DNA of 64,000 nucleotides from contig CAZPRN010000003.1 in the NCBI GenBank assembly GCA_964589605.1, positions 135,733 through 199,732 of the forward strand, read 5' to 3'. Positions 4,762 to 8,975 of this stretch are shown here, piece by piece (position 1 is the stretch's first letter; each line of letters starts with the position of its first letter). Source of the DNA: an uncultured Candidatus Bathyarchaeia archaeon. GTDB lineage: Archaea; Thermoproteota; Bathyarchaeia; TCS64. The position numbers and the translations under genes were made by a program. The notes under the pieces are model-generated. The model was not told where the DNA came from. It made no database searches and saw nothing but the letters and a program-made list of their open reading frames with translations.

Positions 4762-6351
4762 GTGAAACCCCTCATCGTTGACACCCTAGCATCTGGCAAG
4801 GGAACAAGGCTTACAACGCGGGACGTTATAGGGGCTGGTCCACGAACAGTTGCAGGGGTACTTGAGAAACACGGTTTCATGCCAGAGATCATGCCAGTTG
4901 AGAGGTATCTGGGGAAAGGCTTCAAAATCAAAGGTTATGATTCGTTGCTGGTCAGTGGAATGACCTCGGATATCCCAGCCATGCAGCGGGTTATCAGAAA
5001 GTGGAGAAAAGCCTCAAAAGCACCCGTGATCATAGGCGGTCCATCCTGCTCAGAACCGGAAAGAGTTCTACGAAAAACAGGGGCAGATATCGCGATTACG
5101 GGTGAGGGAGAGGAGACGACAGCGGATCTGGTGAAGGTGAACGCCTTCACCGGCGACATGGATGGGCTTGATGATATGCTCGGCATCGGTTATAGGATCA
5201 AGAAAAGCATAAACGTCAACCCCATGCGCCCAATCCAGTCAAGGGAAATATTCAGCAAGTACCCCCCATCGGTCTCGACGATCACGGGATACGACCTCTA
5301 CAAATCAGCGAGAGTTTACGTAGAAGTGGTTAGGGGTTGCAGTAACTATCATAGGGCAAGGATTGGCCCCATCGGGGAGAGTTGTACGTTCTGCGAGCAA
5401 TGCACAGAGGGAGAACTCACCGATAGGTACGACTGCCCGGTGGGGATACCTCCCGGATGCGGATACTGCAGCGTCCCAAGCCTCTATGGTCCACCTAGGA
5501 GCAGGCCGAAGGAACTAGTAATAGAGGAAGCAAAAGGGCTTCTGGACCTTGGTGTCCACAGGCTGGTGCTCAGCGCCCCCGGGTTCCTCGACTATGGCAG
5601 GGACTTTCTAGTTGACCCTGAGCCACTCACAGACCCAAGGAATCCCTTGCCCAACTATAAGGAGCTTGAAGGTCTTCTCGCTGGACTGTCTGAGCTACCC
5701 GAGATGAGAGCGGGAAATGCCTCGTTGATGATTGAGAACATCAAGGCAGCCCTGGTGACTGAGAAGGCAGCTGGTATTCTAGGCAAGTATCTCGGGGATA
5801 CTCCGGTTAGCGTTGGGTTTGAGACAGGATCCGATTCTCACAGTGTTCAGCTTGGGAGACCAGACACACCATCAGAGACCATAGTCGCATTGAGGAGGCT
5901 CAAAGAGGCGGGTTTGAAGCCCTACGTCTACTTCATCCATGGGTTACCAGGGCAGACACATGAAACCGCGTTAGAGTCTGTCAGGAGGATCAATCAGAGC
6001 ATGAGATTGGGCGCGGATAGGGTGATACTGTACAGGTTCATGAGCCTTCCGGCTTCTACGTTCCGCGGATGCCCCTCGGGTCCACCGGCTGTACATGACC
6101 CTGACAGCAAGCTCATCTACGATACAGCCCAGAAGGCAAACGAGGGAAGCAAGAAGGAATTGGTCGGGCAACGATTGAAAGTTGTAATCGCCAACAGGTA
6201 TGAACGGGATCGCCGATATTCAGTGGCTTACCCCATGCTCCACGGACCCGTTGTGCTGGTCGAGAACGGTGGTCTTGAGCCTGGAAGCGTACACACGGTA
6301 AGGATAACCGGTGTTGCCAGCGAAAGGATGGTCGTTGGAAGGGTAACCTGA
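4762..6351 (+). CDS. Radical SAM-type protein with flavodoxin/B12-like N-terminal domain and C-terminal TRAM-like barrel
   Basis: GCSNY...CTFCEQC...CGYCSV cysteine cluster, GFETGS and a TIM-barrel-like core. C-terminal GQRLKVVI..VHTVRITGV..VGRV resembles a TRAM domain. GTG start. Confidence 0.65.
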   Translation: MKPLIVDTLASGKGTRLTTRDVIGAGPRTVAGVLEKHGFMPEIMPVERYLGKGFKIKGYDSLLVSGMTSDIPAMQRVIRKWRKASKAPVIIGGPSCSEPERVLRKTGADIAITGEGEETTADLVKVNAFTGDMDGLDDMLGIGYRIKKSINVNPMRPIQSREIFSKYPPSVSTITGYDLYKSARVYVEVVRGCSNYHRARIGPIGESCTFCEQCTEGELTDRYDCPVGIPPGCGYCSVPSLYGPPRSRPKELVIEEAKGLLDLGVHRLVLSAPGFLDYGRDFLVDPEPLTDPRNPLPNYKELEGLLAGLSELPEMRAGNASLMIENIKAALVTEKAAGILGKYLGDTPVSVGFETGSDSHSVQLGRPDTPSETIVALRRLKEAGLKPYVYFIHGLPGQTHETALESVRRINQSMRLGADRVILYRFMSLPASTFRGCPSGPPAVHDPDSKLIYDTAQKANEGSKKELVGQRLKVVIANRYERDRRYSVAYPMLHGPVVLVENGGLEPGSVHTVRITGVASERMVVGRVT

Positions 6352-6418
6352 TACGAATCTCAGCTCGGTAATATTATCCTGTTATGCTTTTATCCGGGAG
6401 ACTGGATGCAACAAACAA

Positions 6419-7182: not shown

Positions 7183-7382
7183 GGGCGAAACCAAAAGAGA
7201 TCATCAAAGGATTACGTGGAACGATGAACGGTTTGAAGGATAAAATAAGCTCCCGGTTCAAGAAGAGTGAAGAAGTCGAGGAAGATGAACCTGAAGAGTG
7301 ATTGATCAGGTTAATACGGTGGGAACTGACAGAAAACGATGCGTTTTAAAGAGAGCGTATTGAGTAATCTTAGGCGTCAAGT

Positions 7383-7571
7383 ATGTCCACTGAAGATAAC
7401 GGCGTAGAACAAATGAACCAGGAGGGGCCAGTGTACGAGTGCGTCAAGTGCGCGCGCAGGGTCCCCCACAAGGACCTCCAGCGATACATCAGCTTCAGGT
7501 GCCCATACTGTGGTTACAGGATTTTCCGCAAGGTACGCGCCCCCATCGTGAAAAGGGTGAAGGCGAGGTAA
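7383..7571 (+). CDS. rpoP: DNA-directed RNA polymerase subunit P (Rpo12/RpoP); start may be the MNQEG Met at 7413
   Basis: YECVKC..(x15)..RCPYCGYRIFRKVR is a 4-Cys zinc ribbon with a basic tail, as in archaeal RpoP / eukaryotic Rpb12. Confidence 0.8.
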   Translation: MSTEDNGVEQMNQEGPVYECVKCARRVPHKDLQRYISFRCPYCGYRIFRKVRAPIVKRVKAR

Positions 7572-7573
7572 AC

Positions 7574-8122
7574 ATGACATCGTTAGAGAAGGCACACACG
7601 CTTGAAGAAAAGAGAGCAGCCCTCATCATCCAGTACCGCAAGTTCAACCTAGACGCCATTGAGAAAGAGGAAGAGAAGCTCACATACAGGCTGAGCAGGG
7701 GCGAGGAAAAATACCTCATGCACGTTCTGCTCAACAAGAAGACCATCGGCATCGCGTTCATCAGAAACCTCAGGGACCAGATCGAGGAAGAAGAGGTCAC
7801 CGGAGGCATCATAGTCGCAGACGGCAAGTACACCTACAGCGCCAGGAGCAACGCCCCCGAGATGAGGATAGAGCTAATCCCATCCAGCCTACCCACCTTT
7901 GATGTGTTCGAGCACTCATACGTGCCACTGCACGAGGTTGTGACCGAGGAGGAGCGGAAGGAGATCAGCGAGAGATACCACGCGGAGCCATACCAGTTCC
8001 CGTGGATCAGGGCATCAGACCCAGTCTCGATTATCCTAGGTGCTACACCCGGCGATGTGTTGAAGATAACTCAGAAGAGCGAGACGGCGGGAGAGTACTT
8101 CAGCTACCGTTACGTAGTATAA
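7574..8122 (+). CDS. rpoH: RNA polymerase subunit H (Rpo5) with an Rpb5-like N-terminal extension
   Basis: C-terminal HSYVPLHEVVTEEE..PWIRASDPV..GDVLKITQKSETAGEYFSYRYVV matches the RpoH/Rpb5 C-domain. The ATG at 7574 follows the rpoP stop; the earlier ORF start at 7439 overlaps rpoP in another frame. Confidence 0.85.
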   Translation: MTSLEKAHTLEEKRAALIIQYRKFNLDAIEKEEEKLTYRLSRGEEKYLMHVLLNKKTIGIAFIRNLRDQIEEEEVTGGIIVADGKYTYSARSNAPEMRIELIPSSLPTFDVFEHSYVPLHEVVTEEERKEISERYHAEPYQFPWIRASDPVSIILGATPGDVLKITQKSETAGEYFSYRYVV

Positions 8123-8325
8123 TCTTTTCTTAACTCTACTAGAATTACTATTGCCTCACCGAGGGGCATGTCAAGTCTCTGGCTTAACTGCTCAGGGGTG
8201 ATGTCCGGATTGACAGGTAGAATGTTGTCCCGTGTGTATGTCATATGGGAGATATACATGGGCAGTTTCTGTGCGGTCTCGACGAGTATATGCCAGATAG
8301 GGTTACTCGTGTACTCGTCGCTCAT
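8110..8325 (-). CDS. Small hypothetical protein, possible HTH
   Basis: 71-aa ORF. The C-terminal ITPEQLSQRLDMPLGEAIVILVEL looks helix-turn-helix-like. It overlaps the rpoH end by 13 nt, convergently. Confidence 0.4.
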   Translation of the reverse strand: MSDEYTSNPIWHILVETAQKLPMYISHMTYTRDNILPVNPDITPEQLSQRLDMPLGEAIVILVELRKDYTT

Positions 8326-8357: not shown

Positions 8358-8975
8358 TTAGCCTTCCCGAAGCTTGTCATACATCTTGTCCAGTGTCCAA
8401 CGGAGACTGCTGTTAAGCTCGCGAAGCCGTCTCTCTCCACCATAGTTGGTGATGGTTAGGCTAGTTATCCTCTCTCCATCGGTGTCCACGGTGTACTCTA
8501 GGATGTCCTGTGGCTCAAGCTCGCCGTTGGATGCACGTTCCTGATCAGTCCTCCTCATATTATCGAGGACACGCTCGACAAGAAAGCTCTGGAACGGGGG
8601 GATATCAGTTGTGAACTGGAACACATCAGAGGGTGTGAAAACTAGGCTGTTCCCCTCAACGTTCAAAGCGCCAAGCACTGTGCCGTCCTTTCCTGTGATG
8701 CTCATCTCCTCATCTCCCCCGACAAGTTCGGGGTCTGCTTCTGGCTCGTGTTGAGGTTCAACAGGTTCCTCCACGGGGGCTGGCTTTGGTGGAGTAGTCG
8801 CCTTGGGTACTTGAGATGGTGCTAAGGTTCTGAACCCGGTGTTCACGATGATGTCATTTATCTGCTCAAGGGCTTTCCTGATATCCGCCATCTCTACCTC
8901 GATCTCCCTTAGCCTCGCCTCTAGGGACGCCTTGAACTCTAGCAGCTTCTTTGTCTCGTTCTCCTGAGCCACCAC
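8358..8975 (-). CDS. Hypothetical protein (N-terminal coiled coil, Pro/Glu-rich linker, C-terminal globular domain)
   Basis: 205-aa ORF with coding-like composition. No family motif recognised. Confidence 0.55.
   Translation of the reverse strand: MVAQENETKKLLEFKASLEARLREIEVEMADIRKALEQINDIIVNTGFRTLAPSQVPKATTPPKPAPVEEPVEPQHEPEADPELVGGDEEMSITGKDGTVLGALNVEGNSLVFTPSDVFQFTTDIPPFQSFLVERVLDNMRRTDQERASNGELEPQDILEYTVDTDGERITSLTITNYGGERRLRELNSSLRWTLDKMYDKLREG

Follow-up and report, generated by a model that had tools for sequence, protein, structure and literature searches.

Previous work divided the RNA polymerase subunit Rpb5 into a C-terminal half that is common with archaea and an N-terminal jaw half that has been called eukaryote-specific (PMC3906176, PMC1802627, PMC2847245). 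The archaeal counterpart, RpoH, has been described as without an N-terminal extension, or Rpb5-N as eukaryotic (PMC3906176, PMC3424549). The locus studied here raises the question of whether the jaw half is older than the eukaryotes. It lies in a 64,000-nucleotide (nt) stretch of DNA, called the window below, from an uncultured archaeon of the class Bathyarchaeia (assembly GCA_964589605.1, contig CAZPRN010000003.1, positions 135,733 to 199,732), and it encodes an RpoH of 182 amino acids (aa). An initial annotation had suggested that this could be a lineage with a fuller Rpb5-like subunit, and the suggestion has held up on the strength of sequence profiles, full-length superposition, the presence of a sole rpoH and class-wide conservation. 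With good confidence we favour the reading that the protein is the only RpoH of the genome and a two-domain, Rpb5-like subunit, likely co-transcribed with rpoP, whose N-terminal domain (N-domain) is a dead Mrr-type fold homologous to Rpb5-N and likely extends the lower jaw of the enzyme. The features on which the argument turns are as follows.

7383..7571, plus strand: rpoP (Rpo12/Rpb12 homologue), a 62-aa zinc ribbon with CxxC...CxxCG
7574..8122, plus strand: long-form rpoH (Rpo5), 182 aa plus stop, the genome's only RpoH gene
7574..7888, plus strand: N-terminal domain, aa 1-105, an inactivated PD-(D/E)XK (Mrr-like) fold and homologue of the Rpb5 jaw domain
7898..8119, plus strand: C-terminal domain (C-domain), aa 109-182, a canonical RpoH/Rpb5_C domain

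The sole RpoH of the genome has two domains

The initial annotation had recognized an Rpb5-C-like C-terminal half in the 182-aa protein, and profile searches bore this out. Residues 109-181 matched PF01191 (Rpb5_C) with 89.4 bits against a cut-off of 23.5 (E=1.3e-25), and the NCBIfam RpoH equivalog NF007129 gave 89.6 bits against a cut-off of 83. It had also raised the possibility that the gene was a divergent paralog beside a canonical rpoH, and had proposed a search for a second, short rpoH upstream of rpoB. Searched in six frames, the assembly (2.7 Mb, 94% complete) yielded one Rpb5_C match, the next best standing at E=0.36, and thus no second canonical rpoH. In the source genome rpoB is on another contig, the genes upstream of it are the divergent LSm and L37e genes (L005:5738-6208, G000:C23), and no rpoH was found there. 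With one Rpb5_C in the 94%-complete assembly and no rpoH at rpoB, the paralog proposal is rejected.

The N-domain might still be an artefact of gene calling, the true product being a short RpoH started at an internal Met97, with the upstream 96 codons not in the subunit. There is indeed an in-frame ATG at codon 97, and NCBI versions of RpoH annotated as 72-81 aa (OGD57471.1, MGD0805021.1 and MCX6655802.1) fall in the same 90%-identity cluster (P0125) as the 182-aa forms. Met97, however, is not conserved, being K in the main Bathyarchaeia type described below, and the rpoH frame stays open upstream of it across hundreds of diverged genomes. In independent gene calls for relatives, rpoH starts 2-5 nt past the rpoP stop, and the N-region folds confidently in AlphaFold2 (AF2) models. 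The ratio of nonsynonymous to synonymous substitution (dN/dS), measured against two relatives without indels and with synonymous sites near saturation, came to 0.11-0.15 in the N-domain and 0.06-0.09 in the C-domain; with L141, indels put the ungapped codons of the N-domain out of register, and that comparison was discarded for this domain. Judged by these comparisons of coding sequence, the N-terminal 105 codons are translated and are under purifying selection as protein. An internal start as the true one is scarcely credible, and the 72-81-aa annotations are a start-calling artefact. This is an annotation issue, as internal start calls in some public records (~81 aa) conceal the N-domain.

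The N-terminal domain and the jaw domain of Rpb5

The N-domain and the jaw domain at the N-terminus of eukaryotic Rpb5 are homologues. A by-eye match of 'KTIGIAFIRNL...GGIIVADGKYTYSAR' to the distal part of the Rpb5 N-domain, made in the initial annotation, was reproduced by HMMER alignments to Arabidopsis NRPB5A and human RPB5. With the single sequence as query, phmmer gave an unbroken alignment of residues 31-182 to NRPB5A 49-205 and of residues 55-181 to human RPB5 79-209; yeast Rpb5 likewise aligned from residue ~55. A full-length profile of 12 sequences scored eukaryotic Rpb5 chains at 121-123 bits, compared to at most 112.6 for archaeal subunit H, and its positions 22-184 aligned to Arabidopsis 38-205. 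When a profile of the N-domain only was run against the PDB, the eight best matches were all Rpb5 (E=2.2e-5 to 0.19, six of them at E<=2.1e-4), and no nuclease was among the matches listed. Features common to the archaeal long form and eukaryotic Rpb5 also include the glycine in '(K/T)(V/I)G(I/V)' and, after the fourth strand, '..A(K/R)'.

Structure prediction was done on monomers. The full-length AF2 model, built from a 31-sequence alignment, had a predicted local distance difference test score (pLDDT) of 90.1 and a predicted template modelling score (pTM) of 0.81. Superposition of such a model on Rpb5 had been proposed in the initial annotation, and in a Foldseek search the top 34 matches were full-length Rpb5 chains from eukaryotes and African swine fever virus (ASFV), aligned over ~190-210 columns with template modelling scores (TM) of 0.66-0.82. 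Archaeal H chains, in comparison, aligned to the C half only (TM 0.39).

The N-domain of the model has the topology alpha-beta-beta-beta-alpha-beta of the PD-(D/E)XK nuclease core (pLDDT ~90), and the same result was obtained when it was folded alone. Residues 43-102 gave a marginal match to Pfam Mrr_cat (PF04471), with 22.0 bits in the whole protein and 24.2 in the N-domain alone against a cut-off of 21, and NA-iREase1 (PF22722) also matched these residues. Mrr_cat was matched by all 13 N-domains tested (best E=7e-9), and in Asgard long forms it scored 31-34 bits with nearly the whole model covered. A fusion to a restriction-endonuclease-fold domain had been put forward in the initial annotation as an alternative to Rpb5. 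As to the fold this was right, given the Mrr_cat match; as a rival to the Rpb5 reading it falls away, because Rpb5-N is itself a member of the PD-(D/E)XK superfamily, listed for "Eukaryota" only in the survey concerned (PMC3424549).

The catalytic motif of that superfamily has been lost. An alignment of 298 long forms from three clades has, in place of the (D/E)xK of the third beta strand, H-V-L in the window type, W-C-I in the main Bathyarchaeia type and R-I-I in Asgard. A conserved acidic-x-Lys is found nowhere across the 298, and the Asp in strand 2 is retained in Asgard only. Because the (D/E)xK is replaced, the N-domain is a dead nuclease fold. Residues R22, G59, Y86, T87 and E100 are conserved at >=96% in each of the three clades. 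The domain could in principle have a job unrelated to the polymerase jaw, as a residual nuclease or defence element or as a regulatory module off the polymerase: Mrr_cat and NA-iREase1 are families known from restriction and defence contexts, related unfused open reading frames (ORFs) exist, and so do variants with several N-domains, such as the 481-aa P0144. Yet the catalytic motif is gone from 298 of 298 long forms, the domain belongs to the one RpoH that the genome has, as a fusion that is stable over a whole class, and neither in the window nor at the relatives' loci are restriction-modification or defence genes adjacent to rpoH. We regard an off-jaw job as very improbable.

Several observations weigh against our reading of the N-domain as an Rpb5-type jaw domain. 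Pfam Rpb5_N (PF03871), searched at E<=10, found no match in the window protein, the genome, the 13 N-domains or eight Asgard and Bathyarchaeia long forms, so that the resemblance to Rpb5-N is one of remote homology and not of family membership by that model. The comparison with Rpb5 domain profiles proposed in the initial annotation thus succeeded for the C-domain and, through the N-domain-only profile, for the N-domain, but failed with the Pfam Rpb5_N model. In a Foldseek search with the N-domain model alone, Rpb5 ranked first (E=7.7e-4, 81 columns, root mean square deviation (rmsd) 2.2 A, TM 0.54), but the Mrr-type proteins MspJI and AF1548 followed at E=3-5e-3 with a TM of 0.62, above that of Rpb5; by itself, therefore, the fold does not point to Rpb5 in particular. 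In a tree of the C-domain the eukaryotes were not grouped with the long forms, the tree having 78 columns, too few, and an unresolved, unsupported backbone (40/86). In addition, the orientation of the two domains in the AF2 models could have been learned from Rpb5 structures. The archaeal N-domain, at ~105 aa, is also shorter than the eukaryotic one, which we take to be ~140 aa, a difference of ~35 aa; part of the eukaryotic N-terminal helical region is presumably absent. Finally, the N-domain is strongly basic in the main Bathyarchaeia type (median net charge +9) and in Asgard (+5), but neutral in the window clade (0, isoelectric point 6.6), the window protein itself having -1. In the window clade, therefore, direct DNA contact is less likely than protein docking.

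The Pfam, Foldseek and tree results could all be accommodated by a convergent fusion, in which a Mrr-like domain joined RpoH in archaea independently and the likeness to Rpb5-N reflects common PD-(D/E)XK membership only. Donor domains were available, since unfused N-domain-like ORFs occur in Bathyarchaeia and in genome G081. Such a history does not readily explain why, in the PDB, the N-domain sequence profile retrieves Rpb5 with no nuclease among the matches listed, nor why the order of the domains is the same, with an aligned linker, 'ELIP..FD.FEH', that continues into the C-domain, nor the whole-protein TM of 0.82. In approximately unbiased (AU) tests, which are weakened throughout because they were run after the tree had been seen, a single clade of long forms plus eukaryotes was not rejected (delta log-likelihood (lnL) 1.0, p-AU 0.49). 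In a 182-column tree of two-domain forms, the eukaryotes, represented by two partial sequences, joined the long Asgard clade of the Hod type with support of 84/86, subject to a long-branch warning. Convergent fusion thus seems to us unlikely. In our reading, the archaeal N-domain is intermediate between ordinary Mrr domains and the Rpb5-N of eukaryotes, the latter being the more derived.

We infer that the protein is incorporated into the polymerase. Homology with the archaeal and eukaryotic polymerases of solved structure suggests that the C-domain would anchor it at the lower jaw, on the largest subunit. Most likely the N-domain would then lengthen this jaw along the channel for downstream DNA, as Rpb5-N does, and would act as a structural or protein-docking module, presumably for a binding partner, and not as an enzyme.

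Distribution, gene order and origin of the long form

To map the long form, as the initial annotation had proposed, the N-domain profile was run over 401 genomes of the window's phylum, a strong match being defined as E<=1e-15. Such matches were present in 49 of the 60 genomes of class Bathyarchaeia. Six families of the class (11 genomes) were without an N-domain and had a short RpoH, in open frames of 85-123 aa, save for one of the 11 with no RpoH match at all. The other classes of the phylum gave weak nuclease-like matches only, the exception being genome G081, with an unfused ORF and a short RpoH. The window type comprises 447 proteins, all of 182 aa, and the main Bathyarchaeia type more than 2,233 proteins, which are from Bathyarchaeia according to record titles and have an N-domain ~30% identical to the window's. 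The long form occurs at at least 243 further Bathyarchaeia species loci, and in the full-length tree the window type nests within the main type.

A third long clade, the P0143 type, is Asgard and carries the NCBI names Candidatus Hodarchaeota, Promethearchaeota and Candidatus Hermodarchaeia. The full-length profile matched 281 of 301 genomes of the Asgard phylum, with best E-values in a trimodal distribution:

139 genomes: best E<=1e-40, positions ~14-184; those listed at E<=4e-43 cover ~14-184 with few exceptions
47 genomes: intermediate E; 4 of 6 checked were long
95 genomes: C-domain only; 4 of 4 checked were short

From these classes and the spot checks, roughly half of the sampled Asgard phylum carries the long form. 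The long RpoH is thus standard in Bathyarchaeia and common in Asgard.

The long architecture goes together with detachment from the rpoB operon in both phyla. A short rpoH was directly upstream of rpoB in all 17 cases located (10 Bathyarchaeia, 6 Asgard and that of G081), whereas rpoB was beside none of ~100 long rpoH genes, within flanks that were mostly 1.3-4 kb downstream. The strictness of this link is a new comparative observation, and it constrains how the replacement happened. The pairing with rpoP, in turn, is specific to the window-type clade: a zinc-ribbon scan of ~100 loci found rpoP upstream of the long rpoH in the window's own locus only.

Some variants of the architecture were met in the survey. 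Many Asgard genomes have two full-length long rpoH genes in tandem, ~130-150 nt apart, encoding paralogous Rpb5-like subunits (G537:C410:5243-5761 and 5896-6414; G609:C111:1729-2247 and 2379-2897; also G663:C207 and G534:C31). Several tandem Mrr-like N-domains precede one Rpb5_C in P0144, from a metagenome contig (L006:3410-4855, 481 aa), and several tandem N-domains are also found in a 465-aa open frame of the Asgard phylum (G416:C63:11528-12394). Bathyarchaeia further have N-domain-like ORFs without Rpb5_C, both stand-alone frames of ~112-130 aa and frames of ~190-218 aa, in genomes that also have one long rpoH. Examples of unfused ORFs are G324:C2:114993-115301 (218-aa frame), G141:C13:48971-49264, G162:C1:1322676-1322903 (112-aa frame) and G081:C139:908-1207. 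The fused domain could derive from ORFs of this kind, or they from it. The contig of record L088 (DASPTR010000162.1) has a long rpoH of the Bathyarchaeia type, and its title is "Candidatus Acidoferrum sp.", which we take to be a bacterial name; it is probably mis-binned or mislabelled.

Around the RpoH gene of the window, three further features were recorded.

7344..7351, plus strand: TATA-like element TTTTAAAG, ~32-39 nt before the rpoP start codon; putative promoter of the rpoP-rpoH bicistron
8110..8325, minus strand: convergent 71-aa ORF with a 13-nt overlap with the rpoH 3' end; outside the RpoH feature
8358-8975, minus strand: convergent 205-aa gene with a coiled-coil-like N-terminus

Two statements of the initial annotation on gene arrangement proved correct. 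The ORFs at 7383-7571 and 7574-8122 place rpoH 2 nt after rpoP, with its ATG at 7574, and the next gene, at 8110-8325, is on the opposite strand. For the rpoP product the top matches were RpoP equivalog models of NCBIfam, five in number and each under its curated cut-off (E=2.4e-10 to 4.7e-8), and Pfam PF03604 matched at E=0.013; the gene is kept at the same position in relatives. The TATA-like sequence GTTTTAAAG is invariant, the core 'GTTTTAA.G.GA' being unchanged in four relatives, and the intergenic DNA on either side varies. By the usual architecture of archaeal promoters the element at 7344..7351 is a putative promoter, from which rpoP and rpoH would be co-transcribed. A Shine-Dalgarno-like GGCGAGG before the ATG at 7574 was considered as evidence for the start; it is conserved, yet it was set aside as independent evidence because it lies inside the rpoP coding sequence. 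In the window clade the neighbourhood runs, in order, radical-SAM gene, rpoP, rpoH, two convergent small ORFs, orotidine monophosphate (OMP) decarboxylase and a pyruvate-ferredoxin-oxidoreductase-family (POR) gene, and this order is conserved down to 57% protein identity. The two convergent genes likewise keep their positions in relatives down to 57% RpoH identity, a gene of 67-81 aa being called at the position of the 71-aa ORF; Pfam and NCBIfam scans assigned no family to either the 71-aa or the 205-aa product.

How did the two-domain form arise? In further AU tests, uniting all archaeal long forms in one clade cost nothing, the lnL being 0.49 above that of the free tree. A single clade of all Bathyarchaeia RpoH, long and short, was borderline (p-AU 0.076), and one of all Asgard RpoH, long and short, was rejected (delta lnL 75, p-AU 1e-20). 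The 182-column tree described above fits one fusion in Archaea that was inherited by eukaryotes, and is no proof of it. We give an even chance to a history in which an inactivated Mrr-type domain was fused to RpoH once, within Archaea and outside the rpoH-rpoB operon; the long gene then replaced the operon copy in most Bathyarchaeia and in about half of the sampled Asgard, and eukaryotes inherited it via an Asgard-related ancestor. The long gene would have spread by differential retention or by transfer between Bathyarchaeia and Asgard. If that history is true, Rpb5 did not acquire its two-domain architecture in eukaryotes.

Comparison with known systems

A homologous N-domain on the only RpoH of an archaeal genome moves the origin of the jaw module back into Archaea. 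Our search of the searchable literature, with subscription journals outside it, found no description of an archaeal Rpb5-type N-domain; a prior description is possible. A 2026 survey of the evolution of archaeal small subunits discusses long Rpo6 and Rpo8, and no long Rpo5 (PMC13257274). Two 2026 fold surveys have Rpb5 only as a fold shared between archaea and eukaryotes (PMC13607799, PMC13539645). In eukaryotes the partners of the jaw domain include TFIIB, TFIIF RAP30 and HBx, mostly without archaeal counterpart (PMC13257274). The long forms offer a route to the role of the jaw domain before TFIIF, TFIIB-type contacts or Bud27/URI.

Four known systems are close enough to be compared. Canonical archaeal RpoH/Rpo5 (~75-90 aa; 4qiw_H, 7ok0_H, 8cro_H, 2waq_H) has a C-domain that is 46-51% identical to the window's, with an rmsd of 1.1-1.5 A. 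The canonical subunit differs in being without an N-domain, and the canonical genes are directly upstream of rpoB. The Mrr_cat and NA-iREase1 domains, with MspJI (4f0q) and AF1548 (1y88), have the fold and detectable sequence similarity in common with the N-domain; unlike the restriction domains, the N-domain is without the catalytic (D/E)xK and is fused to a polymerase subunit. The Sulfolobales have a lineage-specific subunit, Rpo13, which lies near Rpo5 and makes contact with downstream DNA (PMC2675907, PMC3479171). It may be a functional analogue of the N-domain, as an extra element at the lower-jaw, downstream-DNA side, but its fold is unrelated and it is a separate polypeptide.

The nearest system is eukaryotic Rpb5/RPABC1, the subunit common to Pol I, II and III. 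The window protein has the same domain order as Rpb5 (1dzf, 5xog_E, 8uhd_E, 7eu0_E) and as the ASFV subunit (8q3b_E), that is, an N-domain without nuclease residues followed by Rpb5_C. It departs from Rpb5 in that its N-domain scores as Mrr_cat and not as Pfam Rpb5_N, and in that its gene is in a bicistron with rpoP. The long RpoH is a variant of a known subunit, one with a real bearing on the origin of the jaw of the eukaryotic polymerase.

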